From assembly GCF_963921235.1 (NCBI RefSeq), contig NC_086108.1, forward strand, positions 35,342,001 to 35,406,000: a stretch of 64,000 nt of DNA, given 5' to 3'. Both the position numbers and the translations under genes were made by a program. This stretch comes from Mobula hypostoma. Its lineage: Eukaryota. Shown one piece after another: positions 4,881-59,999 of this stretch. The first letter of the stretch is position 1. The number at the start of each line of letters is the position of its first letter. The notes beneath the pieces were generated by a model that did no database searches, had not been told where the DNA came from, and saw only the letters and a program-made list of their open reading frames with translations.

Positions 4881-5241
4881 GCCTTGTTTGGTTTGACCTA
4901 AATGAGTGCCCAGACAAAATGGCAGGGTTTTTATGGAATATATTTTAGGACATGCTTGTTGTTGGAAAGATCAGCACTTACTCAACCAGGCACCTTGACA
5001 GTGCCTCCCACAACCACAGCCTTTATGAAGAAGGACAAGAGTCACAGGCACATGAGAACACCAGTATTTGCCAGTTCTCTTTTTCCCTTTCCACCTTCTT
5101 TAAGGGCTTAGTGGATGTCCTCCCACAACATTGTTGGATAGAGAGTTTCCACATTTAGTTCCTGCTATGATGAAGGAATGGTGATGTTTGCAAACCAGGA
5201 GGCAAACTTGCAGGTGGTGGTGTTCCAATGCACCTGTGGGT

Positions 5242-5334
5242 TCTGACGAAGGGTCTCAGCCCGAAACGTCGACTGTACCTCTTCCTAGAGATGCTGCCTG
5301 GCCTGCTGCGTTCACCAGCAACTTTGATGTGTGT
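5242..5334 (+). mobile_element. Short Penelope-like pLTR fragment with minimal hammerhead ribozyme core
   Basis: CTGACGA (5243-5249)-A-GGGTCTCAGCCC-GAAAC-GTC. 13-bp TSD TGCACCTGTGGGT (5229-5241, 5335-5347). Similar to the 3' end of the Penelope element at 19165-19268. Confidence 0.8.
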
Positions 5335-5852
5335 TGCACCTGTGGGTCTTGTGATTCCTGTTAGATTGTGGATAAGGAAGGTGCAGTTGGATTAGCCTGG
5401 ATGGGTATCTCCAGTGCACTTTGTAATAAGCAGTAGTAGAACAGTGACTGTTTAGGGTGGCAGATGGAAGCCTATTTAAGTGGACCACACTGTCCTGGAT
5501 GGGAATGAAATTCTTGAGTGTTTATGGAACTGCACTCATTCAGGCAAGTGTGCTGTATCCCACTGCCGTCCTGTACTTGGTGGAAAGTGATTGGTGTGTC
5601 TGAAGGTGAGTCACACACCAAAGGATATCCTGGCTCTGATCTACTGTTACACCGCAGTATTTGCATGATTGTCTAAACATACTTTCTGCATAAAGGTGAT
5701 TCTACAGTTGGAGACTTGATGTATACAATGCCATTGGATATCACGGAGAGTGATTAGGCACTTTATTGTTGGAAATGGTCATTGTCTTTCCCCTTTGTTA
5801 AAGGAGTTTATGCTAATTGAATACTGTGGAAGTGTAATTGCATTTCAACTAT

Positions 5853-6059
5853 GAGAAGAAGAAGAAAGCCCTTAATTCTGAGTGGAGTCATCGGGACACT
5901 GACATGACGGCGCTTTTTTTTAGCAGGCTTTCTTATTTTTACGAGGTCAAGTTGCCAGCACGGATGGAAAGTGTGCAAGGGAGCTGGCTGGATTCAAACT
6001 CGGGAGCCTTCGCTCTGAAGTCCGACACTGATGCCATTACGCCACCAGCCAGCCCCACC
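5853..6059 (-). mobile_element. tRNA-derived SINE
   Basis: Minus strand has A-box TGGCGTAATGG and B-box-like GAGTTTGAATCC, with a (CTT)n tail. 8-bp TSD TCAACTAT (5845-5852, 6060-6067). Confidence 0.8.
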
Positions 6060-6156
6060 TCAACTATATACACACTAATTATATAGTGCAGCTACTGTAT
6101 ACAGACAACCACAGCATAGTAAATTTTAAATTGTCCCATTCAGTCCTAAAGTTTTA

Positions 6157-6955
6157 GACCATAATACCATAAGACATAGGAGCAGAATTAGGCCATCTGG
6201 CCCATCGAGTCTGCTCCGCCATTCAATCATGGCTGATCCTTTTTTTTTCCTCCACCTAAACCCCAGTTCCTGGCCTTCTCCTCATAAGCTTTGATGCCAT
6301 GGCCAATCAAGACCCTATCAATTTCTGCCTAAATACACAAAACAACCTGGCCTCCACAGCTGCATGTGGCAACAAATTCCACAAATTCACCACCCTTTGG
6401 CTAAAGAAATTTCTTTGCACCTCTGTATTGAAAGCGTGCCCCTCCATCCTGAGGATGTGCCCTCTTGTACTAGACTCTCCCACCATGGGAAACATCCTTT
6501 CCACATCTATCCTGTCTAGGGCTTTCACCATTCAAAAGGTTTCAATGAGATCCCCCCTCATCCTTCTGAATTCCAGCGAGTATAGACCCAGAGCCATCAA
6601 ATGTTCCTCGTATGATAACTCTTTCATTCCTGGAATCATCCTTGTGAACCTCCTCTGAACCCTCTCCAATGACAGCACATCTTTTCTTACATGTTCACAA
6701 TACTCAAAGTGAGACCTCACCAGTGCCTTATAAAGCCTCAGCATCGCATCCCTGATCTTGTATTCTCGACCTCTTGAAATGAATGCTAGTATGGCATTTG
6801 CCTTCCTCATCATTGACTCCACCTGCAAGTTAACCTTTACGGTGTTCTGCAGAAGGACTCCCAAGTCCCTTTGCATCTCAGATTTTTGGATTTTCTCCCC
6901 GATTAGAAAATAGTCCTTACATTTATTTCTACTATCAAAGTGCATGACCATTTAA
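6157..6955 (-). mobile_element. CR1 LINE 3' fragment inserted at the 3' end of the Gypsy pol remnant
   Basis: ORFs 6532-6951 (RDLGV, LYKALVRSHFEYC, LERVQRRFTRMIPG, RRMRGDLIETF) and 6307-6531 (TRGH, FFSQRVVNLWN). CR1 tail at 6157-6200. Confidence 0.9.
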
Positions 6956-7144
6956 TTTTAATCACTGTGGAGGGTTTCTTACTCTTGTCAGATAATGTCT
7001 TCCCTGACAAGGGGGATCACTCTGTTTGAGACTGGTGGCTATGAAACAATCTCAGGTTCTGGGGCCTCTTCCATGGTGGTTGTATGAGTTGACTCGGAGA
7101 TTGAGGAAAGTGGTTCTGACAGCTCTGGACACCTTCCATCTCCA

Positions 7145-7806
7145 CTTTTCTCTCTGGTTCTACTTCGATCCCTCTCTTTTTTCCCACCTGCCTTCTCTCT
7201 TTCACACCACACCATTCTCTTGCTCATCCACATCCTTTTTCTCCATTTCTTCCCTCCTTTTCCTGCTCCTAGTTTGTACATCTTGATCTTAAGAAGATGT
7301 TTTTAGTTCGCTGGAGTATTTTCTTAATAATCCTTCTATCACTCCCTTTATGATCTGATCCCTCCTCTTGGTGTCCTCATTCACAACATCCTCTGATGAA
7401 TCCTCTGTTTTCATATCTCCATTGACTCCTTTCTTTTTAACCTTCCATACAGCTAGTTGGACTTTGGTCTTTGCAGCTACTTTTACCAGCAGCTTTTTGA
7501 CCGCACTTGAAGTTCATGCAATAACCTTAACGCACACAGAGTAGATTCTTGATCTTTATACTCACAAAAACCAAATGCTTGTAACTTTCCTAAAGCTCCT
7601 TGAACTCTCTTCCAGCTTACAACCAAGCCACATTTCACAAGTAACTGTCTGATTAACACGTCAAAAGCTTTCTCAGATATGTTGCCTACAAAAACTATTG
7701 TAGTCGGACCTCTGCATTTGTCACTTTCTTGCTTCCTCTGAGCAGTATGGTTGTTCCTTGGTCCAATATGCTTTCCAACAAGAGGCACAAAGGCTGGAAC
7801 CAACAT
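7145..7806 (-). pseudogene. RBM25: Processed (intronless) RBM25 fragment: RRM and start of the charged RE/RD region
   Basis: Reads LVPAFVPLVGKHIG...GPTTIVFVGNISEKAFDVLIRQLLVKCGLVVSWKRVQGALGKLQAFGFCEYKDQESTLCALRLLHELQ. After a frameshift it continues KLLVKVAAKTKVQL..WK.KKK..DTKRRDQIIKGVIEGLLRKYSSEL, then a stop, then DRSRTREKS. Matches vertebrate RBM25 as recalled. No introns, no PWI domain. Confidence 0.92.
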
Positions 7807-9272
7807 CTGTTTGTCCTCTGCTGGGTTTCTATTCATGGAGTACAGTTTGGAGACAGTTGTGGCAACATCCAGCATATTTCTTAATTTGCTTTCTTATGGC
7901 TTCATTGCAGGGGATGTGGCATGCAAATAGTGGATGGATCTCCAATCAAGTTGTAGTCGTTTCAGCCAATCATGCCCCACAATGCTGTTGTTGGTTGTTG
8001 TATTTCACAGTTACAAATGTCATTCTCACAGAAGTTATCTATTCTCCAGTACAAGTTCTTAGTTGAATGTCTGTAAGTTTCAGTTTTGTATCTTTGAAAT
8101 GCCGTTCAAACTCATTTTGTGGAATGACTGAAACAGCCAAACTAGTATCCAGTTCCATTTTAATTAATTTGCAATTCACTTCTGGCATAAGCCATATTAC
8201 TTGTCTATTGTTAATATTCACACTGTAAATTTCTAAACTATACAATCCTGTGTTACTCTCATCATTGTCGTATTTTTCATCGACTGTGTGCAGCTAAATG
8301 CTCTTTTTGAATCAGTAACTAGACTCTTCCCTGTGCAGTTCATTTATTTCTGACTGCCTGACATGCTCTTTGCATGTGTTTGTATGAGCTACTTTGTTGC
8401 ACTTTCTTCAAGTTTTGCATTTATTTGGTGTATGCGAGCCCTGGCCACAACGGTAACACGAGTTGTTCGACCAGGCCGATCTCTGTTTAGACATTGTAAT
8501 TTTGTTCACGCTCACTTTCATTCCTCACTGCAACTCAATTGTGTCTCTGTCTCTGGTTCCCATCGAAACAGCGATTTCCACTGCACTTTTAAATGTAAGT
8601 TGTGCTTCGGTTAGGAGCCATTTTTGAATGCTTTCTTTTAAGATTTTGCAAACAAAACTGTCTCCTAGTGCATCATTAACCCCATTACTGAACTGGCAAT
8701 GCTCAGACAATCTCTTCAATTCAGCCGTGTACACTAAAGTGGACTCTCCATCCTGGTGATTCACTTATGAAGCTTAAAGTGTTCTGCGATTAACAATTCT
8801 AAGTGTTTCTGCATCACTCTTACACTTGTAGCAAAGCTCACTTCTGCTGGTTTGTTTGGAGAGGACAAACTTTGAAGCAAACTGTATGCCTTTAAACTCA
8901 ATGCACTTAGCAAAATTGGCATTTGCTTCTCATTGGCTATTTCATTGGTTTCAAAATATTGATCTAATATCTGAGCATACATAAGCCAATTACCTATTGT
9001 GTAATCAAACATGTCAATCTTTCTGATGTAGCCAGCCATTGCTGATTTTTTTAATGATTATTATCAACCAGTACTCGTTCTTTATGAACTCATGAATTGT
9101 TTCATTTTGACTTCTTTAAAAAGCACTTGATTATGTCTTCCTTTCTGAAGACCATATCTGCATGTGTTGGCTGTTTTTATTTTTACTCATTTTTTTTAGT
9201 TCGAGTATCTCGCTGCATTTTAATAGGTCAGCAGCTGTCTCTGGGTTTGTTTTAAAAATACCTCATCACCAA

Positions 9273-9531
9273 TGTTATGTTTTGTAACTTCAAGAACATT
9301 AAATTGATTCGACGGAAGACATGGTGATTCCGAAATACTGGTGTAACTTCATCTTTACTTTAAGTGAGGCATGCACGTATCACATATTAACATGACGATA
9401 TAGGCGATTAACATAGTTTTACATATAACCTGTAATTAATTAAACTAATTAAACAATAAATGCTTAATCAAACAATATATATACAAGGTTACTCAAGTAT
9501 TATTGAAATATTAAATACCCCTCAAATAACA
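9273..9531 (-). repeat. 5' LTR of the Gypsy element (259 bp)
   Basis: Inverted termini TGTTAT...ATAACA, followed on minus by a TGG-starting PBS and the gag leader. No second copy seen in the window. Confidence 0.7.
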
Positions 9532-11644: not shown

Positions 11645-11873
11645 GAACAACACACATAAAAGTTGCTGGTCAATGCAGCAGGCCAGGCAGCATCTCTAGG
11701 AAGAGGTACAGTTGACGTTTCGGGCCAAAACCCTTCGTCAGGACAGGCAAAGTCCTGACGAAGGATCTCGGCCCGAAACGTCGATTGTACCTCTTCCTGG
11801 AGATGCTGCGTTCACCAGCAACTTTTATGTGTGTTGCTTGAAATTCCAGCACCTGCATAATTCCTTGTGTTTG
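11645..11873. mobile_element. Inverted pair of Penelope-like pLTR fragments with two hammerhead cores
   Basis: Minus copy ~11648-11744 and plus copy ~11752-11873. CTGACGA...GAAACGTC occurs on both strands. 12-bp TSD AGTTGAATCACT (11633-11644, 11874-11885). Confidence 0.85.
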
Positions 11874-15962: not shown

Positions 15963-16194
15963 CACGAGGAATTCTGCAGATGCTGGAAATTCAAGCAACG
16001 CACTTCAAAGTTGCTGGTGAACACAGCAGGCCAGGCAGCATCTCTAGGAGGAGGTACAGTCGACGTTTCAGGCTGAGACCCTTCGTCAGGACTGCGTTTC
16101 AGGCCGAGAGCCTGGTCTCGGCCTGAAACATCGACTGTACCTCTTCCTAGGGATGCTGCCTGGCCTGCTGTGTTCACCAGCAACTTTGATGTGT
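15963..16194. mobile_element. Inverted Penelope-like pLTR pair with hammerhead, inserted in a CR1 tail remnant
   Basis: Minus copy 15963-16094 with complete CAGTC-CTGACGA-AGGGTCTCAGCCT-GAAAC-GTC-GACTG (16094-16057). Plus copy ~16113-16194. 16-bp TSD GTTAATTACAGGTTTA (15947-15962, 16195-16210). Confidence 0.85.
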
Positions 16195-16284
16195 GTTAAT
16201 TACAGGTTTAATTAGTTTGGCACAACATTGTGTGGTGGTGGGCTTGTTTTTGAGCTGTACCATTCTATGTTCGATGGGAGCCAC

Positions 16285-19655: not shown

Positions 19656-22600
19656 AAATGATTTCTGTTCCATGACATTTTTGAGGCCAGTCCTAAGCAA
19701 TAGATTGTCTTTGTTTAAAATCCTGTAAACTCCATTTTGTGAAATGAGGGGGGAAGGAGGAAATACAATTAAGAGGCCTACTGGGCTGGGGTCAGGCCTT
19801 CTCAACATTATCCATCCAGGAACTATGGAACTCACCGAAGGAGTTGGACAATCCAGGGCATGGGCTGAAGAACCTGCAGTTGGAGCTACTCAGGCCACTG
19901 CAGGAGAAGGTCAGGCTGCTACAAGGTTGGAGTAACCGACTGCAGGAGGCTTGGAGCTCACCAGAAGAGATGGCACCAAAGCAGAAACAACACAGCATTA
20001 GTAATGCAGCCAAATGGAGGCAGTGAAACGCAGGAGCAGGGCGGGTGGTGAAACGCAGGAGCAGGGCGGGTGGTGAAACGCAGGAGCAGGGCGGGTAGTG
20101 AAACGCAGGAGCAGGGCGAGTAGTGAAACGCACAGCAGGAGCAGGGCGGGTGGTGAAACGCAGGAGCAGGGCGGGTAGTGAAACGCAGGAGCAGGGCGAG
20201 TAGTGAAACACAGGAGCAGGGCGGGTAGTGAAACGCACAGCAGGAGCAGGGCGGGTGGTGAAACGCAGGAGCAGGGCGGGTAGTGAAACGCAGGAGCAGG
20301 GCGAGTAGTGAAACGCACAGCAGGAGCAGGGCGGGTAGTGAAACGCAGGAGCAGGGCGGGTAGTGAAATGCACAGCAGGAGCAGGGCGGGTAGTGAAATG
20401 CACAGCAGGAGCAGGGCGGGCGGTGAAACGCAGGAGCAGGGCGGGTAGTGAAACGCAGGAGAAGGGCGGGTAGTAAAACGCAGGAGCAGGGCGGGCGGTG
20501 AAACGCAGGAGCAGGGCGGGCGGTGAAACGCAGGAGCAGGGCGGGTAGTGAAACGCAGGAGCAGGGCGAGTAGTGAAACGCACAGCAGGAGCAGGGCGGG
20601 TGGTGAAACGCACAGCAGGAGCAGGGCGGGTGGTGAAACGCACAGCAGGAGCAGGGCGGGTAGTGAAACGCACAGCAGGAGCAGGGCGGGTAGTGAAACG
20701 CACAGCAGGAGCAGGGCGGGTAGTGAAACGCACAGCAGGAGCAGGGCGGGTAGTGAAACGCACAGCAGGAGCAGGGCGGGTAGTGAAACGCACAGCAGGA
20801 GCAGGGCGGGTGGTGAAACGCAGGAGCAGGGCGGGTAGTGAAACGCAGGAGCAGGGCGAGTAGTGAAACGCAGGAGCAGGGCGGGCTGTGAAACGCAGGA
20901 GCAGGGCGGGTAGTGAAATGCCCAGCAGGAGCAGGGCGGGTGGAGAAATGCACAGCAGGAGCAGGGCGGGTAGTGAAACGCAGGAGCAGGGCGAGTAGTG
21001 AAACGCACAGCAGAAGCAGGGCGGGTGGTGAAACGCAGGAGCAGGGCGGGTGGTGAAACGCAGGAGCAGGGCGGGTAGTGAAACGCACAGCAGGAGCAGG
21101 GCGGGTAGTGAAACGCACAGCGGGTAGTGAAACGCAGCAGGGCGGGTAGTGAAACGCACAGCAGGAGCAGGGCGGGTGGTGAAACGCACAGCAGGAGCAG
21201 GGCGGGTAGTGAAACGCACAGCAGGAGCAGGGCGGGTAGTGAAACGCACAGCAGGAGCAGGGCGGGTAGTGAAACGCACAGCAGGAGCAGGGCGGGTAGT
21301 GAAATGCCCAGCAGGAGCAGGGCGGGTGGAGAAATGCACAGCAGGAGCAGGGGGGGTGGTGAAACGCACAGCAGGAGCAGGGCGGGTAGTGAAATGCAGG
21401 AGCAGGGCGGGTGGTGAAACGCAGGAGCAGGGCGGGTGGTGAAACGCGGGAGCAGGGCGGGTAGTGAAACGCAGGAGCAGGACGGGTACTGAAATGCAGG
21501 AGCAGGGCGGGTGGTGAAATGCACAGCAGGAGCAGGGCGGGTAGTGAAACGCAGGAGCAGGGCGGGTAGTGAAACGCAGGAGCAGGGCGAGTAGTGAAAA
21601 CGCAGGAGCAGGGCGGGCAGTGAAACGCAGGAGCAGGGCGGGTAGTGAAACGCAGGAGCAGGGCGGGCGGTGAAACACAGGAGCAGGGCGGGCGGTGAAA
21701 CGCAGGAGCAGGGCAGGTAGTGAAACGCAGGAGAAGGGCGGGTAGTAAAACGCAGGAGCAGGGCGGGCGGTGAAACGCAGGAGCAGGGCGGGCGGTGAAA
21801 CGCAGGAGCAGGGCGGGTAGTGAAACGCAGGAGCAGGGCGAGTAGTGAAACGCACAGCAGGAGCAGGGCGGGTGGTGAAACGCAGGAGCAGGGCGGGTAG
21901 TGAAACGCAGGAGCAGGGCGAGTAGTGAAACACAGGAGCAGGGCGGGTAGTGAAACGCACAGCAGGAGCAGGGCGGGTGGTGAAACGCAGGAGCAGGGCG
22001 GGTAGTGAAACGCAGGAGCAGGAGCAGGGCGGGTAGTGAAATGCACAGCAGGAGCAGGGCGGGCTGTGAAACGCAGGAGCAGGGCGGGTAGTGAAATGCC
22101 CAGCAGGAGCAGGGCGGGTGGAGAAATGCACAGCAGGAGCAGGGGGGGTGGTGAAACGCACAGCAGGAGCAGGGCGGGTAGTGAAATGCAGGAGCAGGGC
22201 GGGTGGTGAAACGCAGGAGCAGGGCGGGTGGTGAAACGCGGGAGCAGGACGGGTACTGAAATGCAGGAGCAGGGCGGGTAGTGAAACGCAGGAGCAGGGC
22301 GGGTGGTGAAACGCACAGCAGGAGCAGGGCGGGTAGTGAAACGCAGGAGCAGGGCGGGTAGTGAAACGCGCAGGAGCAGGGCGGGTAGTAAAACGCACAG
22401 CAGGAGCAGGGCGGGTAGTGAAACGCACAGCAGGAGCAGGGCGGGTAGTGAAACGCACAGCAGGAGCACGGAGGGTAGTGAAACGCAGGAGGAGGGCGGG
22501 TAGTGAAACGCACAGCAGGAGCAGGGCGGGTAGTGAAACGCACAGCAGGAGCAGGGCGGGTGGTGAAACGCACAGCAGGAGCAGGGCGGGTAGTGAAATG

Positions 22601-25600
22601 CACAGCAGGAGCAGGGCGGGTAGTGAAACGCACAGCAGGAGCAGGGCGGGTGGTGAAACGCAGGAGCAGGGCGGGTGGTGAAACGCAGGAGCAGGGCGGG
22701 TGGTGAAACGCAGGAGCAGGGCGGGTAGTGAAACGCACAGCAGGAGCAGGGCGGGTAGTGAAACGCACAGCAGGAGCAGGGCGGGTAGTGAAACGCAGGA
22801 ACAGGGCGGGTAGTGAAACGCACAGCAGGAGCAGGGCGGGTAGTGAAACGCAGGAGCAGGGCGGGTAGTGAAATGCACAGCAGGAGCAGGGCGGGTAGTG
22901 AAACGCAGGAGCAGGGCGGGTAGTGAAACGCAGGAGCAGGAGCAGGGCGGGTAGTGAAACGCAGGAGCAGGGCGGGTGGTGAAACGCAGGAGCAGGGCGG
23001 GTAGTGAAACGCACAGCAGGAGCAGGGCGGGTAGTGAAATGCAGGAGCAGGGCGGGTGGTGAAACGCAGGAGCAGGGCGGGTGGTGAAACGCAGGAGCAG
23101 AGCGGGTAGTGAAATGCAGGAGCAGGGCGGGTAGTGAAACGCAGGAGCAGGACGGTTAGTGAAATGCAGGAGCAGGGCGGGTGGTGAAATGCACAGCAGG
23201 AGCAGGGCGGGTAGTGAAATGCAGGAGCCGGGCGGGTAGTGAAACGCAGGTGCAGGGCGGGTCGTGAAATGCACAGCAGGAGCAGGGCGGGTGGTGAAAC
23301 GCAGGAGCAGGGCGGGTGGTGAAACGCACAGCTGGAGCAGGGCGGGTAGTGAAATGCAGGAGCAGGGCGGGTGGTGAAACGCAGGAGCAGGGCGGGTGGT
23401 GAAACGCAGGAGCAGAGCGGGTAGTGAAATGCAGGAGCAGGGCGGGTAGTGAAACGCAGGAGCAGGACGGTTAGTGAAATGCAGGAGCAGGGCGGGTGGT
23501 GAAATGCACAGCAGGAGCAGGGCGGGTAGTGAAATGCAGGAGCCGGGCGGGTAGTGAAACGCAGGTGCAGGGCGGGTCGTGAAATGCACAGCAGGAGCAG
23601 GGCGGGTGGTGAAACGCAGGAGCAGGGCGGGTAGTGAAACGCACAGCAGGAGCAGGGCGGGTAGTGAAACGCACAGCAGGAGCAGGGCGGGTAGTGAAAC
23701 GCACAGCAGGAGCAGGGCGGGTAGTGAAATGCACAGCAGGAGCAGGGCGGGTAGTGAAACGCACAGCAGGGGCAGGGCGGGTAGTGAAACGCACAGCAGG
23801 GGCAGGGCGGGTAGTGAAACGCACAGCAGGGGCAGGGCGGGTAGTGAAATGCACAGCAGGGGCAGGGCGGGTAGTGAAACGCACAGCAGGGGCAGGGCGG
23901 GTAGTGAAACGCACAGCAGGGGCAGGGCGGGTAGTGAAATGCACAGCAGGAGCAGGGCGGGTAGTGAAACGCACAGCAGGAGCAGGGCGGGTAGTGAAAC
24001 GCAGGAGCAGGGCGGGTGGTGAAACGCACAGCAGGAGCAGGGCGGGTACTGAAATGCACAGCAGGAGCAGGGCGGGTGGTGAAACGCACAGCAGGAGCAG
24101 GGCGGGTAGTCAAACGCACAGCAGGAGCAGGGCGGGTAGTGAAACGCACAGCAGGAGCAGGGCGGATAGTGAAATGCAGGAGCAGGAGCAGGGCGGGTGG
24201 TGAAACGCACAGCAGGAGCAGGGCGGGTAGTGAAATGCACAGCAGGAGCAGGGCGGGTGGTGAAACGCACAGCAGGAGCAGGGCGGGTGGTGAAATGCAC
24301 AGCAGGAGCAGGGCGGGTGGTGAAACGCAGGAGCAGGGCGGGTAGTGAAACGCAGGAGCAGGGCGGGTAGTGAAACGCACAGCAGGAGCAGGGCGGGTAG
24401 TGAAACGCAGGAGCAGGGCGGGTAGTGAAACGCAGGAGCAGGGCGGGTAGTGAAACGCAGGAGCAGGGCGGGTAGTGAAACGCACAGCAAGAGCAGGGCG
24501 GGTAGTGAAATGCACAGCAGGAGCACGGCGGGTGGTGAAACGCAGGAGCAGGGCGGGTAGTGAAACGCACAGCAGGAGCCGGGCGGGTAGTGAAATGGGC
24601 GGGTGGTGAAACGCAGGAGCAGGGCGGGTAGTGAAACGCAGGAGCAGGGCGGGTAGTGAAACGCAGGAGCAGGGCGGGTAGTGAAATGCACAGCAGGAGC
24701 AGGGCGGGTAGTGAAACGCAGGAGCAGGGCGGGTGGTGAAACGCACAGCAGGAGCAGGGCGGGTAGTGAAACGCACAGCAGGAGCAGGGCGGGTAGTGAA
24801 ACGCACAGCAGGAGCAGGGCGGGTAGTGAAACGCACAGCAGGAGCAGGGCGGGTAGTGAAACGCACAGCAGGAGCAGGGCGGGTAGTGAAACGCACAGCA
24901 GGAGCAGGGCGGGTAGTGAAACGCACAGCAGGAGCAGGGCGGGTAGTGAAACGCAGGAGCAGGGCGGGTAGTGAAATGCAGGAGCAGGGCGGGTGGTGAA
25001 ATGCACAGCAGGAGCAGGGCGGGTAGTGAAACGCAGGAGCAGGGCGGGTAGTGAAACGCACAGCAGGAGCAGGGCGGGTAGTGAAACGCAGGAGCAGGGC
25101 GGGTAGTGAAATGCACAGCAGGAGCAGGGCGGGTGGTGAAATGCACAGCAGGAGCAGGGCGGGTAGTGAAACGCAGGAGCAGGGCGGGTAGTGAAACGCA
25201 GGAGCAGGGCGGGCAGTGAAATGCACAGCAGGAGCAGGGCGGGTAGTGAAACGCACAGCAAGAGCAGGGCGGGTGGTGAAACGCACAGCAGGAGCAGGGC
25301 GGGTGGTGAAACGCACAGCAGGAGCAGGGCGGGTAGTGAAACGCACAGCAGGAGCAGGGCGGGTGGTGAAACGCACAGCAGGAGCAGGGCGGGTGGTGAA
25401 ACGCACAGCAGGAGCAGGGCGGGTGGTGAAACGCACAGCAGGAGCAGGGCGGGTAGTGAAACGCAGGAGCAGGGCGGGTAGTGAAACGCAGGAGCAGGAG
25501 CAGGGCGGGTAGTGAAACGCAGGAGCAGGAGCAGGGCGGGAAGTGAAACGCAGGAGCAGGGCGGGTAGTGAAATGCACAGCAGGAGCAGGGCGGGTAGTG

Positions 25601-28600
25601 AAACGCACAGCAGGAGCAGGGCGGGTAGTGAAACGCAGGAGCAGGGCGGGTAGTGAAATGCACAGCAGGAGCAGGGCGGGTAGTGAAACGCAGGAGCAGG
25701 GCGGGTAGTGAAATGCACAGCAGGAGCAGGGCGGGTAGTGAAACGCAGGAGCAGGAGCAGGGCGGGTAGTGAAACGCAGGAGCAGGGCGGGTAGTGAAAC
25801 GCAGGAGCAGGGCGGGTAGTGAAACGCACAGCAGGAGCAGGGCGGGTGGTGAAACGCAGGAGCAGGGCGGGTGGTGAAACGCACAGCAGGAGCAGGGCGG
25901 GTGGTGAAACGCACAGCAGGAGCAGGGCGGGTGGTGAAACGCCCAGCAGGAGCAGGGCGGGTAGTGAAACGCAGGAGCAGGAGCAGGGCGGGTAGTGAAA
26001 CGCAGGAGCAGGGCGGGTAGTGAAATGCACAGCAGGAGCAGGGCAGGGCGGGTGGTGAAACGCCCAGCAGGAGCAGGGCGGGTAGTGAAACGCAGGAGCA
26101 GGAGCAGGGCGGGTAGTGAAACGCAGGAGCAGGGCGGGTAGTGAAATGCCCAGCAGGAGCAGTGCGGGTAGTGAAACGCAGGAGCAGGGCGGGTAGTGAA
26201 ATAGTGAAAAGCAGGAGCAGGAGCAGGGCGGGTAGTGAAACGCTGGAGCAGGGCGGGTGGTGAAACGCAGGAGCAGGGCGGGTAGTGAAACGCACAGCAG
26301 GAGCAGGGCGGGTAGTGAAACGCACAGCAGGAGCAGGGCGGGTAGTGAAACGCACAGCAGGAGCAGGGCGGGTAGTGAAACGCACAGCAGGAGCAGGGCG
26401 GGTGGTGAAACGCACAGCAGGAGCAGGGCGGGTGGTGAAACGCACAGCAGGAGCAGGGCGGGTGGTGAAACGCACAGCAGGAGCAGGGCGGGTAGTGAAA
26501 CGCAGGAGCAGGGCGGGTAGTGAAACGCAGGAGCAGGGCGGGTAGTGAAACGCAGGAGCAGGGCGGGTAGTGAAAAGCAGGAGCAGGGCGGGTAGTGAAA
26601 TGCACAGCAGGAGCAGGGCGGGTAGTGAAACGCACAGCAGGAGCAGGGCGGGTAGTGAAACGCACAGCAGGAGCAGGGCGGGTAGTGAAACGCACAGCAG
26701 GAGCAGGGCGGGTAGTGAAACGCACAGCAGGAGCAGGGCGGGTAGTGAAACGCAGGAGCAGGGCGGGTAGTGAAACGCACAGCAGGAGCAGGGCGGGTAG
26801 TGAAATGCACAGCAGGAGCAGGGCGGGTAGTGAAAACAGCAGGAGCAGGGCGGGTAGTGAAACGCAGGAGCAGGGCGGGTGGTGAAACGCACAGCAGGAG
26901 CAGGGCGGGTAGTGAAATGGCAGGAGCAGGGCGGGTGGTGAAATGCACAGCAGGAGCAGGGCGGGTAGTGAAACAGCAGGAGCAGGGCGGGTAGTGAAAC
27001 GCACAGCAGGAGCAGGGCGGGTAGTGAAACGCAGGAGCAGGAGCAGGGCGGGTGGTGAAATGCACAGCAGGAGCAGGGCGGGTAGTGAAATGCACAGCAG
27101 GAGCAGGGCGGGTGGTGAAACGCACAGCAGGAGCAGGGCGGGTGGTGAAACGCACAGCAGGAGCAGGGCGGGTGGTGAAACGCACAGCAGGAGCAGGGCG
27201 GGTAGTGAAACGCACAGCAGGAGCAGGGCGGGTAGTGAAACGCACAGCAGGAGCAGGGCGGGTGGTGAAAAACAGCAGGAGCAGGGCGGGTAGTGAAAAG
27301 CAGTGCAGGAGCAGGGCGGGTAGTGAAAACAGCAGGAGCAGGGCGGGTAGTGAAACGCACAGCAGGAGCAGGGCGGGTAGTGAAACGCACCGCAGGAGCA
27401 GGGCGGGTGGTGAAACGCAGGAGCAGGGCGGGTAGTGAAACGCAGGAGCAGGGCGGGTGGTGAAACGCAGGAGCAGGGCGGGTGGTGAAACGCACAGCAG
27501 GAGCAGGGCGGGTAGTGAAACGCAGGAGCAGGGCGGGTAGTGAAACGCAGGAGCAGGGCGGGTAGTGAAATGCAGGGGCAGGGCGGGTGGTGAAACGCAC
27601 AGCAGGAGCAGGGCGGGTGGTGAAACGCACAGCAGGAGCAGGGCAGGTAGTGAAATGCACAGCAGGAGCAGGGCGGGTAGTGAAACGCAGGAGCAGGGCG
27701 GGTAGTGAAACGCACAGCAGGAGCAGGGCGGGTGGTGAAACGCACAGCAGGAGCAGGGCGGGTAGTGAAACGCAGGAGCAGGGCAGGTAGTGAAACGCAC
27801 AGCAGGAGCAGGGCGGGTAGTGAAACGCAGGAGCAGGGCGGGTGGTGAAACGCACAGCAGGAGCAGGGCGGGTAGTGAAATGCACAGCAGGAGCAGGGCG
27901 GGTAGTGAAACGCAGGAGCAGGGCGGGTGGTGAAACGCAGGAGCAGGGCGGGTGGTGAAACGCAGGAGCAGGGCGGGTAGTGAAACGCACAGCAGGAGCA
28001 GGGCGGGTAGTGAAACGCAGGGGCAGGGCAGGTAGTGAAATGCACAGCAGGAGCAGGGCGGGTAGTGAAACGCAGGGGCAGGGCGGGTAGTGAAACGCAC
28101 AGCAGGAGCAGGGCGGGTAGTGAAACGCAGGGGCAGGGCGGGTAGTGAAACGCACAGCAGGAGCAGGGCGGGTGGTGAAACGCACCGCAGGAGCAGGGCG
28201 GGTAGTGAAACGCACAGCAGGAGCAGGGCGGGTAGTGAAACGCAGGAGCAGCGCGGGTAGTGAAACGCAGGAGCCGGGCGGGTTGTGAAACGCACAGCAG
28301 GAGCACGGCGGGTAGTGAAACGCAGGAGCAGGGTGGGTAGTGAAACGCAGGAGCCGGGCGGGTTGTGAAACGCACAGCAAGAGCCGGGCGGGTGGTGAAA
28401 CGCAGGAGCAGGGCGGGTAGTGAAACGCACAGCAGGAGCAGGGTGGGTAGTGAAACACAGGAGCAGGGCGGGTAGTGAAACGCACAGCAGGAGCAGGGCG
28501 GGTAGTGAAACGCACCGCAGGAGCAGGGCGGGTAGTGAAACGCACCGCAGGAGCAGGGCAGGTGGTGAAACGCACAGCAGGAGCAGGGCGGGTAGTGAAA

Positions 28601-29650
28601 CGCAGGAGCAGGGCGGGTAGTGAAACGCAGGAGCAGGGCGGGTGGTGAAACGCACAGCAGGAGCAGGGCGGGTAGTGAAACGCACAGCAGGAGCAGGGCA
28701 GGTGGTGAAACGCACAGCAGGAGCAGGGCGGGTGGTGAAACGCACAGCAGGAGCAGGGCGGGTACTGAAACGCAGGAGCAGGGCGGGTAGTGAAACGCAC
28801 AGCAGGAGCAGGGCGGGTAGTGAAACGCACAGCAGGAGCAGGGTGGGTAGTGAAATACACAGCAGGAGCAGGGCGGGTGGTGAAATGCAGGAGCAGGGCG
28901 GGTGGTGAAACGCACAGCAGGAGCAGGGTGGATAGTGAAATACACAGCAGGAGCAGGGCGGGTAGTGAAACGCACAGCAGGAGCAGGGTGGGTAGTGAAA
29001 TACACAGCAGGAGCAGGGCGGGTGGTGAAATGCAGGAGCAGGGCGGGTGGTGAAACGCACCACAGGAGCCGGGCGGGTAGTGAAACGCACAGCAGTAGCA
29101 GGGTACCCCACACTGGGGACTGTTTCGATCACAGTAGGACAATGCAAGCTACAGCAGGCCTAGTGGAACTTATAGCAGGTGAAGGGCAGCCTGCTGGAAG
29201 ACAATGCATTCTGCTGGGGCTACACACCATTCTGTTGGATCTATATGACTTATTATGTTGCCTAGCTTGCTGAATACATCTGGTATGTTTTATTTTTAGC
29301 TTCTAGTATCAGTATTATTGTTATTCAATATGACTGATCATTAGGAACAACACTGCCAGTCCAAATACATACGTATTTACAACAGATCTAAAGCTGTTAC
29401 CAGCATTTAGCTTCACTGCTTAATTAGTAGGTTGCAATATTCCTAGAGTTTGCGGCTTTGCTCTTAAGGTTGGCCACACAGCTCCCACAGAGGACTGCAT
29501 TGCCTCCCCCGTAGGTTGGCTCACTTCTGCAGTAGGCACTGTATCTGTTGCATTGGTGCTGACACAGGCTGCAAAACTCCAGCTGTAATATGCATTTGGC
29601 CTGGAGTCATTGGCCGACATTACAAATGGCCACTGCTCTGAATACTCCAA
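19656..29650 (-). pseudogene. Candidate decayed Pro/Ala/Thr/Ser-rich coding exon hosting the minisatellite
   Basis: Both flanks encode related motifs in the frame of the 30-bp unit (AVRFTTRPAP): ALDCPTPSVSSIVP, GCPSPAISSTRPA, LHCPT, AVGYS/SVGYP. GTAAGT donor at 19655-19650. Several stops and one frameshift. No homolog recognised. Confidence 0.3.
20021..29103. repeat. GC-rich minisatellite of interspersed 25-bp and 30-bp units (roughly 330 units)
   Basis: 25-mer GCAGGAGCAGGGCGGGT(A/G)GTGAAA(C/T). The 30-mer adds GCACA; rarer 31-mers carry an extra GCAGGA. Confidence 0.98.
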
Positions 29651-41135: not shown

Positions 41136-41554
41136 TAGCATTGTGGATGATGAGGTCTGTGGAAGGCCATTATATTTTCAAGTTCATGAAATTTAGGTCA
41201 TAAAAGCGTAAGATATAGGACCAGAATTAGACCGACCAACACATCAATTATTTTTCCCTCTCAACCCCATTCTCCTGCCATCTCTGTGTAAATTGAATGC
41301 CATAAGACATAGGAGCAAAATCAGGCCATTCAGCCCATCAAGTCTGCTCCTCCACTTCATCATGGCTGATTTATTCTCTCTCTCAATTCCATTCTCCTGC
41401 CTTCCCCTCATAACCTTTGATGTCCTTACTAATCAAGAACCTGCCAACGTCTGCTTTAAATGTACCCAATGACATGGTCTCCACAGCTGTCTGTGGAAAC
41501 AAATTCCACAGTCTCACCAACTTCTGGCTAAAGAATTTCCTCCTTATCTCTGTA

Positions 41555-42860
41555 TAAAGCTCTACTCACTTATTACTGTGAGGCTAATCACTGTTTCAAT
41601 AACATATTTAAGCTTGCTGACAACACAACTGTCATTGGCCAAATCAAAGCTGGGGATGAATCAGCACGTAGGAAGGAGATTGAAAATCTGGCTGAATGGT
41701 GCCACAACAACAACCTTTCATTCAATGTCAGCAGAACCAAAGAGATGATCATTGACCACAGATTTGGGAAACTGGAGGTCCGTGAGCCAGCTCTCATCAG
41801 AGGATCAGAGCTGGAGAGGGTCAGCAACTTTAAGTTCCTGAGCATTATCACTTCAGAGGATCTGTCCTGGGTCCAGCGCAGAAGTGCCATTACAAAGAAA
41901 GTACAACAGAGCATCTACTTTCTCAGAAGTTTGCGAAAATGTAGTATGTCATCTAAAATTTTGACAAACTTCTATATATGCTTGGTGAAGAGTATACTGA
42001 CCAGTTACATCATGGCCTGGTACAAAACACCAATGCTCTTGTATGGAAAAGCCTACAAAACATCTTGGATATGGCCCAGTCCACCATGAGTGAAGCCCTC
42101 ACCACCACTGAGAACATCTACATAGAACATCACAGGATAGCAGCATCCATTATCACGGACCCCCACCATGCAGGCAATGCACTCTTCTCGCTGCTGCCAT
42201 GAGGAAGGGAGTATAGGAGCCTCAGGACCCACACTTCCAAGTTCAAGAACAGTTATTACCCTTCGCTCACCCCATCACTGAACTGTTCCTACAACCTATG
42301 AACATATTTTCAATGACTCTTCATCTCATTTTCTTGATATTTATTGCTTATTTCTTTTATGTGTTTGCACTGTGTGTTGTCTTTTACATGTTGGTTGTTT
42401 GTCTGTCTTGTTGTTTATGTACATACTTATTTATTTATTTAGAGATATGGTACAGAGTAGATCCTTTCAACCTTTTGAGCCTCACTGCCTAGCAACCCCT
42501 GATTTAAACCTAAACTAATCACAGTACAATTTACAATCTCCAACAAACCTACTAACTTGTAAATCTTTGTTCTGTGAGAGGACACTGGAGAACCCAAAGA
42601 GGGCCCATGAATTCCACTGGGGGAACATACAGTCTCCTTACAGCTGACATCGGAATTGAACTCCAAACTCTGAATTCCCCAAGCTGTAATCGTGTCCTGC
42701 TAACTGCTACACCGCCGTGGAGCGCATTGTGTTCGGTTTTTCCTCGATTCTATTGTGTTTGTTTGTACTTACTGTGAATGCCCACAGGAAAATGAATCTC
42801 AGGATAGTATATTGTGACATTTAGGTACTTTGATAATAAATTTACTTTGAAATTTGTACT
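41555..42860 (+). mobile_element. Rex1/Babar-type LINE 3' part
   Basis: IFKLADNTTVIGQI, WCHNNNLSFNVSRTKEMIID, FKFLSI, KKVQQSIYFLRSL. Tail tactttgataataaatttactttga. Confidence 0.85.
42425..42722 (-). mobile_element. V-SINE-like element nested in the Rex1 3' UTR
   Basis: (TTTA)n tail at 42428-42441 and reverse V-domain/B-box gggaacatacagtctccttacagctgac..ggaattgaactc. Confidence 0.7.
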
Positions 42861-45554
42861 TTGAAGGGTCATCCTTGTATTCTGAGGCTGTGCCCTTTGG
42901 TCCTAGCCTCACCCACTATAGGAAACATCCTCTGCAGAACAATTCTATCTCGTCCTTTCAATATTTGATAGATTTCAAAGAGATCCCCTTTCATTCTTCT
43001 AAGTCCCATCATGTCCAGGCCCAGAGTGATCAAATGCTCCTTATATGTTATACCCTTTCATTCCTGAGGTCATTCTCTAAATCCTCTCCAATGCCAGCAC
43101 ATCCTTCCTTAGATATGAGTTCAAAACAGATCACAATATTCTTTTGCCCTTCCGATTTCTGAAAAAATAGTTCACTCAGCTTTATTTCTTCTGCCAAACT
43201 GCATGACTATGCACTTCCCTATGCCATATTCCATCAAATACTTCTTTGCCCATTCTCCCAACCTATCCAAATCCTTCTGCAAGACTTCCTACTTCCTCAA
43301 CACTACCTGACCTACCTCCTATCTTTGTATCATCTGCAAATTTGTCACAAAATCATCAGTTCTGTTATCCATATCATTAACATATAACGTGGACCCAACA
43401 CCCACCCCTACTGAACACAACTAGTCACTGGCAGCCAACCGGAAAAGGTCCTCTTTTTTCTACCATTTAGTTGACGGGCAGCAGGAAATCGGCTATCCAT
43501 GGTAGTACCTTTCCTGTAAAACCATGAGCTCCTATCTTACTTAGCAGCCTTATGTACAGCACCTTGTCAAAGGCCTTCTGGAAATCCAAGTAAACAACAT
43601 CCACTGGCTCTCCATTGTCTATCCTGTTTTCTACTTCCTCAAGGAATTCCAATAGATTTGTCAGGCAATCTATTCAGCTACCTCATTCAGAACCCTAGAT
43701 TAATGTCCATTTGGTCCAAGTGACTTATCCACCTTCAGATCTTTCAGCTTCCCAAGTATTTTCTTCTTAGTCATAGAAACTACATTCACTTCTGCCCCCT
43801 GGCATTCTCGAATCTCTGGCATGTTGCTGGTGTTTTCCACTGTGAAGGATAATGCAGAATACTTATTCAGTTTATCTTCCTTTTCTTTGTTCCCCATTAC
43901 TACTTCTCCAATGTCATTTTCCTGTGATCCAATGTCCACTCTTGTTTCTCTTTTATTTTTTATATTTCTGAAATGAAACTTTTGGCATCCTCTTTTATAT
44001 AATTGGCTAGCTTACCTTCATATTTTATCCTTGTTCCCTTTGGCTTTTTATTTGCCTTCTGTTGTTTTTTAAAAGCTTCCCAATCATCTAGCTTTCTGCT
44101 AAATTTTGCAATATTTTATGCCTTTTCTTTTATTTTTATGTTGTCTTTGTTTTCCTTCGTCAACCACAGTTGCCATATCCTCCCTTTAGAATTCTTCAAC
44201 TCTTTTGGAATTAGATGTTCCTGCATCTTCAGAATGATTCCCAAAAACTCTAACTATGGCTGGTCTACCGTTATTCCTGCTAGTGTCCCCTTCCAATCAT
44301 CTTTTGCCAGCTCTTCTCTCAACTGTAATACTAAAACATCTGATTTCAGCTTTACCCTCTCAAAACCGCAGGATGAATTTCATCATATTGTGATCACTGC
44401 CTCCTAAGTGCTCCTTTACCTTACGCTCCCTAATCAAATCTGGTTCATTGCCTAATTTAGTTTTTCCCTAGTGGGCTTGATAACAAGCTGCTCTAAAAAG
44501 CCATCTCATAAGCATTCTACTAATTCCTTCTCCTGGGATTCAGTGCCAAACAGATTTTTCCTGTCTACCTGCACTTGAAATCCCCCATGACCACTGTAAC
44601 ATTGCCTTTTTTACATGCCTTTTCCATCTCCTGTTGTAATTTGTACCCATGATTCTGGCTACTATGTGAAGCCCTGTATATACTCCCGTCAGGATCTTTT
44701 TACCCTGGCATTTTCTTAAATCTACCTACAAGGATCCTAAATCTTCTGATCCTATGTCACTTCTTGTGAAAATTTGATTTCATTTTTTTTACCACGAAAG
44801 CCACACCACCCCTTCTGCCAACCTGACTGCCTTTTTTGATCGCACAGTTCTCATTGGATGTTTAGCTGTTCAGACTGAAATAAAGCAATCTTAAATATGA
44901 AGGAGATGTTGTTATGGATACTACCTATTGAATTAAAATTAAGCATGCTAACTCAGACTTTAATGCTAATGTTAACCTTAGAGCTACAATGGTGTAAAAA
45001 CTAACCATTACTTAACTTCAGCAGAAACAGACCTTTCTAAAGTAGCTGCTCTAGAAAGAAACCTATTATTGCTGAACTGCTATGAACAGAATTTGATTAG
45101 TTTTAGTCACTTGCTGTTAGTCTCCTTCTCAGGATCAATAATTCTTGATTAATTTTAAGCATATTTATTTTCTTGCTATAAGATATCAAGAAATCCATAA
45201 TTCAATGATATTTTGTTAACCTTGACAATCTTGGTAAAGAATGAAACGTTTTCACTAATTCACACATTTTTCATATCTGCAGATCTCATTTAAAAGTCTA
45301 AAATCTTGAAATCGTAAAACGGAAATCCATATTGGGTATTGATCTCAACGAGGATGTTACTAAAATAATAATGACTGAGAGGTAGACACACATGCTAAAG
45401 ATTTCTGGGAAATAATTCAGCAACACAATCCAGGTCTATGCAATATAGAGGAGTTCAATTCACAGCAATCAATTTCTGGTCATTCCATTCCAGATGAGCG
45501 ATGCACAATGAACCCAGTCATGACAAACAAATCTATGCTGCACCAAACAACACT

Positions 45555-46104: not shown

Positions 46105-49100
46105 TACCTACCATCCTCCCTTCAATACAATACAGTGCTCACCGTCAGCCTACCGTCCTCCCTTCAATACAATACAGTGCTCACCATCAGCCTACAGTCC
46201 TCCTTTCAGTACAATACAGTGCTCACCATCAGCATACCGTCCCCCCCACAGAACAATACAGTGATCACCATCAGCCTACCATCCTCAATTCGGTACAATA
46301 GAGCGCTCACCACCAGCCTACCGTCCTCAATTCAGTACAATACAGTGCTCACCATCAGCCTACCGTCCTCCCTTCAGTACAATACAGTGCTCACCATCAG
46401 CCTACCATCCTCCCTTCTGTACAATACAGTGCTCATCATCAGCCTACCATCCTCCCTTCTGTACAATACAGTGCTCACCATGAGACTACCGTCCTACCTT
46501 CAGGACAATTCATCGCTCACCATCAGCCTACCGTCCTCAATTCGGTACAATACAGCGCTCACCACCAGCCTACCGTCCTCCCCATGGTACAATGCGGTGA
46601 TCACCATCAGCCTACCATTCTTCCTTCAGCACAATACAGTACTCACCATGAGACTACCATCCTACCTTCAGTACAATTCATCGCTCACCATCAGCCTCTT
46701 GTCCTCGCCACAGTACAATACAGCGGTCACCATCAACATACCATCCCCCCTTCAGTACAATACAGCACTCACCATCAGCCCATCGTCCTCCATACAGTAC
46801 TATACAGTGCTCACCATCAGCCAACCGTCCTCTCTTCAATACAATACAGCACTCACCATCAGCCTATCGTCCTCCCTTCAGTACAATACAGTACTCACTA
46901 TCAGCCTACCATCCTCACTTCAGTACAATACAGTGCTCACCATCAGTCTACCGTCCTTCCCACAGTACAATACAGTGCTCATCATCAGCCTACCGTCCTC
47001 CCTTCAGTACAATACAGTGCTCATCATCAGCCTACCATCCTCCCTTCAGTACAATACAGTGCTCACCATCAGCCTACCGTCCTCTCTTCAGTACAATACA
47101 GCACTCACCATCAGCCTATTGTCCTCCCTTCAGTACAATACAGTGCTCACCATCAGCCTACCGTCCTCCCTTCAGTACAAGACAGTGCTCACTATCAGAC
47201 TACCGTCCTCCCTTCAGTACAATACAGTACTCACCATGAGACTACCGTCCTACCTTCAGTACAATTCATCGCTCACCATCAGCCTCTTGTCCTCCCCACA
47301 GAACAATACAGTGATCACCCTCAGCCTACCGTCCTCAATTCAGTACAATACAGTGCTCACTATCAGCCTATCGTCCTCTCTTCAGTACAATACAGTGCTC
47401 ACCATCAGCCTACCATCCTCCCCACAGTACAATACAGCACTCACCATCAGCCTACTGTCCTTCCCACAGTAGAATACAGCTTTCACCATCAGCCTATCAT
47501 CCTCCCTTCAGTAGAATACAGTTCTCACCCTAAGCCTACCGTCCTCACTTCAGTACAATACAGTTCTCACTCTCAGCCTACCGTCCTCCCCACAGTACAA
47601 TACAGTGCTCACTATCAGACTACCATCCTCCCTTCAGTACAATACAGTACTCACCATGAGACTACCGTCCTACCTTCAGTACAATACAGTGCTCACTATC
47701 AGCCTACCGTCCTCCATTCAGTACAATACAGCACTCACCATCAGCCTACCGTCCTCCCTTCAGTACAATACAGTGCTCACAATCAGCCTACCGTCCTCCC
47801 TTCAGTACAATACAATGCTCACCATCAGCCTACCGTCCTCCCTTCAGTACAATACTGTGCTCACTATCAGACTACCGTCCTCCCTTCAGTACAATACAGC
47901 ACTCACCATCAGCCTACCGTCCTCCCTTCAATACAATACAGTGCTCACAATCAGCCTACCGTCCTCCCTTCAGTACAACACAGTGCTCACCATCAGCCTA
48001 CCATCCTCTGTTCAGTACAATACAGCACTCACCATCAGCCTACCGTCCTCTCTTCAGTACGATACAGCACTCACCATCAGCCTATTGTCCTCCCTTCAAT
48101 ACAATACAGTGCTCACCATCAGCCGACCGTGCTCCCCACGGAACAATACAGTGATCACCATCAGCCTACCGTAGTCCATTCAGTATAATTCAGTGCTCAC
48201 CATCACCCTACCGTATTCTCTTCAATACAATACAGCTTTCACCATCAGCCTATCATCCTCCCTTCAGTACAATACAGTGCTCACCATCAGTCTACCGTCC
48301 TCACTTCAATACAATACAGTGATCACTATCAGCTTACCGTCCTCCCTTCAGTACGATACAGTGCTCGCCATCAGCCTACCGTCCTCCCTTCAGTACAATA
48401 CACTGCTCACCATCAGCCTACCGTCCTCCCTTCAGTACGATACAGTGCTCACCATCAGCCTACCGTCCTCCCTTCAGTATAATACTATGCTCACTATCAG
48501 ACTACCGTCCTCCCTTCAGTACAATACTGTGCTCACTATCAGACTACCGTCCTCCCTTCAGTAAAATACAGTACTCACCATGAGACTACCGTACCCCCTT
48601 CAGTACAATACTGTGCTCACTATCAGACTACCGTCCTCCCTTCAGTACAATACAACACTCACCATCAGCCTACCGTCCTCCCTTCAGTATAATACAGTGC
48701 TCACCATCAGCCTACCGTCCTCCCTTCAGTACAATACCGTGCTCACTTTCAGACTACCATCCTCCCTTCAGTACAATACAGTGCTCACCATCAGACTACC
48801 GTTCTCTCTTCAGTACAATACAGTGCTCACCATCAGCCTACCGTCCTCCCTTCAGTACAATACAGCACTCACCATCAGCCTATTGTCCTCCCTTCAGTAC
48901 AATACAGTGCTCACCATCAGCCTACCGTCCTCACTTCAGTACAATACAGCACTCACCATCAGCCTATTGTCCTCCCTTCAGTACAATACAGTGCTCACCA
49001 TCAGCCTACCGTCCTCCCTTCAGTACAATCCTGTGCACTTTCAGACTACCGTCCTCCCTTCAGTACAATACAGCACTCACCATCAGCCTACCGTCCTCCC

Positions 49101-58100: not shown

Positions 58101-59799
58101 TCAGCCTACCGTCCTCCCTTCAGTACAATACAGCACTCACCATCAGCCTATTGTCCTCCCTTCAGTACAATACAGTGCTCACCATCAGCCTACCGTCCTC
58201 CCTTCAGTACAATCCTGTGCACTTTCAGACTACCGTCCTCCCTTCAGTACAATACAGCACTCACCATCAGCCTACCGTCCTCTCTTCAGTACAATACAGC
58301 ACTCACCATCAGCCTACCGTCCTCCCTTCAATACAATACAGTGCTCACAATCAGCCTACCGTCCTCCCTTCAGTACAATACCGTGCTCACCATCAGCCTA
58401 CCATCCTCCGTTCAGTACAATACAGCACTCACCATCAGCCTACCGTCCTCTCTTCAGTACAATACAGCACTCACCATCAGCCTATTGTCCTCCCTTCAGT
58501 ACAATACAGTGCTCACCATCAGCCTACCGTGCTCCCCACGGAACAATACAGTGATCACCATCAGTCTACCGTCCATCCCACGGAACAATACAGTGATCAC
58601 CATCAGCCTACCGTAGTCCCTTCAGTATAATTCAGTGCTCACCATCACCCTACCGTATTCTCTTCAATACAATACAGCTTTCACCATCAGCCTATCATCC
58701 TCCCTTCAGTACAATACAGTGCTCACCATCAGTCTACCGTCCTCACTTCAATACAATACAGTGATCACTATCAGCTTACCGTCCTCCCTTCAGTACGATA
58801 CAGTGCTCGCCATCAGCCTACCGTCCTCCCTTCAGTACAATACACTGCTCACCATCAGCCTACCGTCCTCCCTTCAGTACCATACTATGCTCACGATCAG
58901 CCTACCGTCCTCCCTTCAGTACAATCCTGTGCACTTTCAGACTACCGTCCTCCCTTCAGTACAATACAGCACTCACCATCAGCCTACCGTCCTCCCTTCA
59001 ATACAATACAGTGCTCACTATCAGCCTACCGTCCTCACTTCAGTACAATACAGTGCTCACCATCAGCCTACCGTCCTCTCTTCAGTACAATACAGCACTC
59101 ACCATCAGCCTACCGTCCCCCCTTCAATACAATACAGTGCTCACAATCAGCCTACCGTCCTCCCTTCAGTACAATACAGTGCTCACCATCAGCCTACCAT
59201 CCTCCGTTCAGTACAATACAGCACTCACCATCAGCCTACCGTCCTCTCTTCAGTACAATACAGCACTCACAATCAGCCTATTGTCCTCCCTTCAGTACAA
59301 TACAGTGCTCACCATCAGCCTACCGTGCTCCCCACGGAACAATACAGTGATCACCATCAGTCTACCGTCCATCCCACGGAACAATACAGTGATCACCATC
59401 AGCCTACCGTAGTCCCTTCAGTATAATTCACTGCTCACCATCACCCTACCATATTCTCTTCAAGACAATACAGCTTTCACCATCAGCCTATCATCCTCCC
59501 TTCAGTACAATACAGTGCTCACCATCAGTCTACCGTCCTCACTTCAATACAATACAGTGATCACTATCAGCTTACCGTCCTCCCTTCAGTACGATACAGT
59601 GCTCGCCATCAGCCTACCGTCCTCCCTTCAGTACAATACACTGCTCACCATCAGCCTACCGTCCTCCCTTCAGTACGATACAGTGCTCACCATCAGCCTA
59701 CCGTCCTCCCTTCAGTACAATACTATGCTCACTATCAGACTACCATCCTCCCTTCAGTACAATAATGTGCTCACTATCAGACTACCGTCCTCCCTTCAG
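46105..59799. repeat. 42-bp minisatellite, about 325 units, with higher-order repeats; truncated by gap
   Basis: Consensus GTGCTCACCATCAGCCTACCGTCCTCCCTTCAGTACAATACA, with recurrent variant units including a 40-bp unit (..aatcctgtgcactttcagac..). Confidence 0.98.
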
Positions 59800-59999
59800 N
59801 NNNNNNNNNNNNNNNNNNNNNNNNNNNNNNNNNNNNNNNNNNNNNNNNNNNNNNNNNNNNNNNNNNNNNNNNNNNNNNNNNNNNNNNNNNNNNNNNNNNN
59901 NNNNNNNNNNNNNNNNNNNNNNNNNNNNNNNNNNNNNNNNNNNNNNNNNNNNNNNNNNNNNNNNNNNNNNNNNNNNNNNNNNNNNNNNNNNNNNNNNNN
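59800..59999. other. Assembly gap (200 N)
   Basis: Run of exactly 200 N, a round value typical of scaffolding gaps of unknown size. Confidence 0.99.

Follow-up and report, generated by a model that had tools for sequence, protein, structure and literature searches.

An LTR family that carries part of an rbm25 mRNA

The stretch of DNA analysed here (the window, 64,000 nucleotides) holds at 6060-9531 one dead copy from a large family of non-autonomous Gypsy-type LTR elements. In these elements RT, RNase H and most of integrase have given way to a piece of spliced rbm25 mRNA. Chimeric copies of this kind number no fewer than 800 in the genome, and probably about 2,000. We consider it probable that they go back to one capture by two template switches, and that the enzymes of the normal, RT-bearing family then multiplied the chimera to about 2,000 copies.

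The copy at 6060-9531

Read on the minus strand, the copy consists in order of an LTR, a primer-binding site (PBS), gag, protease, an intronless sense segment of rbm25, the tail of pol, a LINE-like insert and the element's 3' UTR. Its parts, in window coordinates, are as follows.

9273..9531, minus: 5' LTR, TG...CA, 259 bp; matches both LTRs of other copies
9261..9271, minus: primer-binding site; can pair at 9 of its 11 bases with the 3' end of tRNA-Ser(GCT) from this genome, two CpG-type changes
8300..9039, minus: gag; ATG at 9039, stops and frameshifts, 3' border approximate
7865..8299, minus: protease region with linker, followed directly by RT in normal relatives
7858..7864, minus: 5' switch point, in frame, on 7 nt common to pol and the end of rbm25 exon 2
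7134..7864, minus: rbm25 insert, intronless and sense; exons 2-7 and bits of 9 and 10 (host cDNA 162 to about 1233)
7492..7695, minus: RRM (RRM_1, E=2e-7), broken by a 1-bp deletion near 7501-7505
7172..7275, minus: subfamily-marking double deletion; lacks about 770-918 and about 1013-1187 of the host cDNA
7134..7142, minus: 3' switch point; decayed form of the 9 nt common to rbm25 exon 10 and the integrase tail
6957..7133, minus: pol C-terminal tail (integrase end); gag and tail come from one family
6157..6956, minus: LINE-like insertion, later than the element; other copies join 6957 straight to 6156
6060..6156, minus: element 3' untranslated stretch, broken off before the PPT and 3' LTR
5853..6059, minus: SINE-like insertion with an 8-bp TSD

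A first-pass annotation had listed an LTR, a PBS, a gag with zinc knuckle and a protease, and all of these are present (LTR at 9531-9273, PBS at 9271-9261), the knuckle, from about 8458, being decayed; the only Pfam profile matched by gag is DUF7083, weakly. The LTR is the sole one within the 64-kb window, and the PPT and 3' LTR are absent from this copy. The same annotation had called the copy dead and noted a frameshift near 7500, which we place at a 1-bp deletion near 7501-7505 that is private to the window copy.

The LINE-like insertion at 6157-6956 has no Pfam match; we take it to be a CR1-type LINE. Two more pieces of this repeat lie at 41296-41560 and 42879-43114, and a SINE-like repeat lies at 5240-5337, 11648-11837 and 15995-16199, two occurrences being head-to-head inverted pairs. 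The window also contains a G+A-rich tandem array of about 9 kb (20030-29103; 30/55-bp unit) and an array of more than 425 copies of a 42-bp unit (46107-63996), with a short interruption near 59-61 kb.

The captured segment and its donor

The insert had been read as intronless RBM25, and this is borne out by six host exon-exon joints that are contiguous in the window, by the RRM_1 match and by protein comparisons, in which the best matches are all RBM25 and the closest is a shark protein. The SINEs suggest a ray-like host. Host rbm25, located with an RBM25 C-terminal query, has normal introns and lies at about 99.79-99.84 Mb of contig C1 in a genome of 3.48 Gb; the window is on another contig, C50. 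The same query revealed no second rbm25 gene in the genome, and a PWI family search of the genome gave three matches, none of them rbm25. Identity between the insert and host rbm25 is 74-90% exon by exon, and about 84% over the core.

The insert begins in the last 10 bases of host exon 2. The first-pass boundary at 7806, with an insert of ~660 bp, has to be revised: 7806 is the joint of a 48-nt rbm25 exon with the next exon, the real start lies 58 bp further up, at the switch point 7864-7858, and the insert is therefore about 730 bp long. The return to pol, put at ~7145, matches the switch point at 7142-7134. The 48-nt exon (C1:99832586-99832633) occurs in cartilaginous-fish proteins and is absent from the bony-fish and frog proteins compared; the isoform that includes it is the one fixed in the element.

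In the window insert, two internal deletions have removed host exon 8 and most of exon 9, and the segment ends in exon 10. The longest copies in the family span host cDNA 162 to about 1233 and thus stop 28 bases into exon 10; other copies carry nested deletions in the purine-rich part of the rbm25 piece. PWI was never captured in the family. The capture held the RRM together with a charged Arg/Glu region, which was trimmed later. The earlier proposal that a non-autonomous family had amplified an RRM-only, PWI-less RBM25 is thus correct as to amplification (808 loci) and the missing PWI, and mistaken as to "RRM-only", the charged region having been captured as well.

Family size and independent insertion

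The chimeric 5' joint was found at 808 places in the genome with a 27-base pattern (≤2 mismatches), and the normal joint at 1,729 places in a pattern search of the same kind; both reversed controls gave 0. By these joint counts the chimera makes up a third of the family and the normal form outnumbers it 2 to 1. The fraction of fetched copies that pass the joint test (27 of 72) leads to an estimate of about 2,150 chimeric copies, which is likely low because the sample is well preserved: the copies studied are the best-matching ones and not a random draw. First-look DNA candidates numbered 2,759 for the window piece, 2,335 for host exon 4 and 357 for host exon 8, with 40 scored each.

Copies with the same joint have LTR pairs and 5-bp TSDs. 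LTR pairs were found in 22 of 72 chimeric copies, with a median difference of 18%, and in 6 of 14 normal copies (17%), so the two forms are equally old by this measure. A 5-bp TSD matches at 4/5 or better in seven of the nine copies in which both ends are readable (shuffled mean 1), and the PPT motif is common to family copies. At the level of the family there are thus both LTRs, a PBS, a PPT and TSDs at independent sites, as for a non-autonomous LTR retrotransposon. One locus, L156 (C96:22.42 Mb), has a tandem duplication of the protease-rbm25 part.

The 98 loci are dispersed over 29 contigs. Some words of the stretch occur in eleven organisms. Three of these, besides the present one, were compared with it: all three have many DNA contigs across the intronless rbm25 part, and the 3' joint is spanned by one contig. 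In one sequencing run, presumed to be RNA, 1 of 487 contigs bridges the 5' joint, which may be DNA or intronic and is not counted, and there was no RNA run among the sequencing runs listed for the stretch. A single retropseudogene, a segmental duplication and an assembly artefact were each considered and ruled out by the dispersal of the copies, their own TSDs and their presence in other organisms.

RT-bearing relatives and the joints of the capture

In the 29 best protease matches besides the window, the protease is followed by rbm25 in 15 and by RT in 14. The RT-type copies have their LTR, gag, pol tail and 3' UTR in common with the window copy, and the flanks of the insert accordingly belong to the same Gypsy family as the gag, as had been supposed. 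The parent family has the order gag-protease-RT-RNase H-integrase, which is the Ty3/Gypsy order, with Pfam matches on one decayed RT-type copy (RVT_1, Integrase_H2C2 and rve) that are all below the cut-off; the RT piece of that copy scores 0.97 against RT clusters. The single gag-pol frame, tRNA-Ser PBS and 5-bp TSD presumably fit a Mag-like element. Four RT-type relatives (L143, L148, L149, L150) have large internal pol deletions of their own, and two of them apparently share a breakpoint before the tail, a second and cargo-free non-autonomous lineage that could serve as a control.

In the chimera rbm25 replaces pol and does not interrupt it, since in normal relatives the space between the joints is taken up by RT to integrase. 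At the 5' joint 7 identical bases are common to element and host (10/12 overall), at the 3' joint 9 bases, and both ends of the insert fall inside exons, on these homologies. Among random position pairs, a homology of at least 7 nt occurs in about 5 of 10,000, and one of at least 9 nt in 4-7 of 100,000. Short homologies at both joints indicate one template-switch capture, and they support the view, advanced in the first-pass annotation, that the chimera was made by a known mechanism, LTR-mediated capture with RT template switching. In LTR-mediated retrocopies of animals, the cited part of Tan et al. (2016; PMC5131818) gives a median homology of 6 bp at the joints.

Under the reading that we regard as probable, rbm25 mRNA would have been co-packaged with element RNA, and RT would have jumped onto the mRNA and back at the 7-nt and 9-nt homologies, likely only once. 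The product would have kept all cis signals (LTRs, PBS, PPT) and been shorter, going through a short burst beside the normal family, whose enzymes likely copied it as a passenger. An LTR, a PBS and an age equal to those of the RT-bearing family would fit movement by the RT and integrase of this partner. Later slips between purine repeats may have cut down the charged region.

Reading frame and founder product

Length and stop statistics agree with the earlier suggestion that gag, protease and RBM25 form one frame. Judged by length class, 42 of 61 copies keep the frame across the 5' joint, and 31 of the 61 have exactly the modal length. From the gag ATG to the joint, one phase is free of stops shared by the 39 aligned copies (11 of them RT-type), against dozens in the other phases. 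From this we infer that the founder likely encoded a Gag-protease-RBM25 polyprotein with the RRM and charged region and no PWI; under the passenger reading, its RBM25 part was likely without selected benefit.

Beyond the 3' joint the integrase tail is in another frame, and the RBM25 frame runs on for about 62 codons. In the two commonest deletion subfamilies of the sample (27 and 22 copies) the RBM25 frame is open to the downstream stop of the long form; this shared frame end would arise by chance in about 1 of 9 cases, and the rarer forms do not all keep the frame. A search of protein databases for gag- or protease-fused RBM25, which was weak and limited by protein length, gave no such name.

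Age, decay and selection

Copies differ from one another by about 17-18% and their relationships are star-like, with deletion-defined groups at 0.16-0.19 within and 0.17-0.19 between. Groups that are as far apart within as between indicate one burst, followed by silence. Dating from 9% per lineage and the rate of 7e-10 per generation given for the epaulette shark in the cited part of PMC10587355 was rejected, as the result, more than 100 million generations, is not credible.

The copies have decayed neutrally. Of the 98 loci, 89 align over 300 bases or more. Across these, low-frequency transitions per site are equal among classes (4.1 nonsynonymous, 3.7 synonymous, 4.3 stop), and the aligned core is interrupted by a stop or frameshift in 88 of the 89, the remaining one aligning over only 393 bases. 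In a protein search, the best 150 of 5,629 candidate pieces are 62-85% identical to shark RBM25; 15 of these 150 are without a stop, at 66-80% identity. Neither among the best 89 DNA matches nor among the best 150 protein matches was there a domesticated copy with an intact frame under purifying selection. The intact members, or working fusion, envisaged in the first-pass annotation are thus not supported so far.

Near-fixed differences from the host comprise 20 synonymous and 3 nonsynonymous changes, a ratio that is expected if the host gene stayed constrained. Non-CpG synonymous differences between family and host number 19, where 11-12 are expected for the age of the burst (P=0.02-0.04), and only one non-CpG nonsynonymous site differs from the host in the long forms. 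This synonymous excess and the kept frame are two weak hints of constraint; the synonymous changes may lie on either the host's or the element's branch. With star-like relationships there is little power to detect selection, and gag-protease gives none, with a flat variability by codon position (0.22/0.19/0.22) and only 4 sites that separate chimeric from normal copies.

Alternative accounts of the family

RBM25 is linked to U1/LUC7, and the Gag-protease-RBM25 fusion, or read-through of the long frame, could have helped the active element, either as an extra RNA-binding domain in RNA packaging or stability or by shifting U1/LUC7-dependent splicing in its favour. We think this doubtful. The in-frame 5' joint, the stop-free phase from gag ATG to joint, the frame kept in both common deletion subfamilies and the synonymous excess are all as a useful product would have it, as is the extension through exon 7 of 13 of the 15 chimeric copies selected by protease; so is the chimera's share of a third of the family. 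However, the only shared core changes that followed the capture, those marking subfamilies, are nonsynonymous (3/3), the deletions sit in purine repeats, where slips are expected anyway, and the normal form remains twice as numerous. Short non-autonomous elements, moreover, often spread well without useful cargo (cited part of PMC5131818).

A fuller version of this idea makes the captured splicing factor an accessory protein: the polyprotein would have released a PWI-less RRM fragment that favoured element RNA or skewed U1/LUC7 splice-site choice, been kept by selection on the element's stem, and driven the burst to which the roughly 2,000 rbm25 copies in several related species go back. We rate this as unlikely, slightly more so than help by the fusion in general.

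Improbable, in our view, is a capture in another cartilaginous-fish lineage, or from a lost allele or duplicate of rbm25, by which the chimera would have arrived already diverged. A synonymous excess without amino-acid change is the expectation for the orthologue of a sister lineage, and at one amino-acid site the copies match a shark RBM25 and not this genome's gene, but a faster local rate, or an ancestral residue later changed in the host, explains these observations likewise; the family's presence in at least three other organisms fits vertical descent, and no second rbm25 gene appeared. Although LINEs are common here, with one inside the window copy, and could leave a similar end product, it is very improbable that a LINE-made processed pseudogene or DNA-level recombination placed rbm25 cDNA in a resident element that then spread, this route being largely refuted by the two homology joints within exons, by the replacement rather than interruption of pol and by the lack, already noted in the first-pass annotation, of any poly(A) or TSD around the rbm25 piece; neither a single locus with such marks nor flanks from another family were found.

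Comparison with known systems and significance

In acutely transforming retroviruses, Gag is fused in frame to a spliced host gene and propagation is helper-dependent. The first-pass comparison with these viruses holds for the layout, and the likeness is architectural only: the rbm25 family has no env and no infection, and its cargo is a splicing factor. In chimeric and normal copies alike, about 150-200 bp separate the end of pol from the 3' LTR, which leaves no room for env; this is not an infectious, env-using lineage.

The closest likeness is to the LTR-mediated retrocopies in the cited part of Tan et al. (2016; PMC5131818), in which a partial spliced mRNA also replaces part of the internal ORFs, is flanked on either side by a single LTR family, meets the element at short homologies and lacks a poly(A) or TSD, and which spread non-autonomously with shared switch points. 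In contrast, secondary spread there reached few insertion sites (18 for nine retrocopies); in the present family 808 copies are verified and the total is put at about 2,000, the subfamilies are nested, and the captured piece is fused in frame to Gag-protease. Maize Bs1 and human HERV-K/FAM8A1 are likewise LTR elements with captured exons, and Bs1 copies share switch points; on the account in the same part of that source, Bs1 has 1-5 copies with three donor genes and FAM8A1 is a single described case, whereas here one donor is present in hundreds of times more copies (PMC5131818).

Histone H3 captured by hAT elements in Pseudocercospora fijiensis is similar in that a housekeeping gene gave rise to hundreds of dead transposon copies, also in related species, but that case, in the cited part of PMC6710886, involves a DNA transposon in a fungus, inactivated by RIP and without an RNA step. 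The Pxyfem retrocopies of PxyMasc are partial host cDNAs in a retrotransposon context and a precedent for small RNAs against a parent gene; as described in the cited part of PMC9674220, they form W-linked tandem arrays with piRNAs, while the rbm25 family is dispersed and about 13% diverged from the host. The mechanism of capture is therefore known (Tan et al. 2016, cited part), and for the scale seen here we found no printed case. Our literature search returned no report of an rbm25-carrying family or of such a scale, and the family may be listed in Repbase/Dfam, subscription papers or supplements.

In these genomes, copies of this family will be a source of error for rbm25 annotation, PCR and read mapping. 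They also preserve an ancient state of the rbm25 mRNA, the 48-nt exon included, and provide a marker shared across related species. The family makes two questions testable, namely whether a cargo can benefit an LTR element and whether silencing of the element spills over onto the host gene. LTR capture of host mRNA, described mainly from single- or few-copy cases, can make a repeat family with thousands of copies of part of a conserved vertebrate gene.
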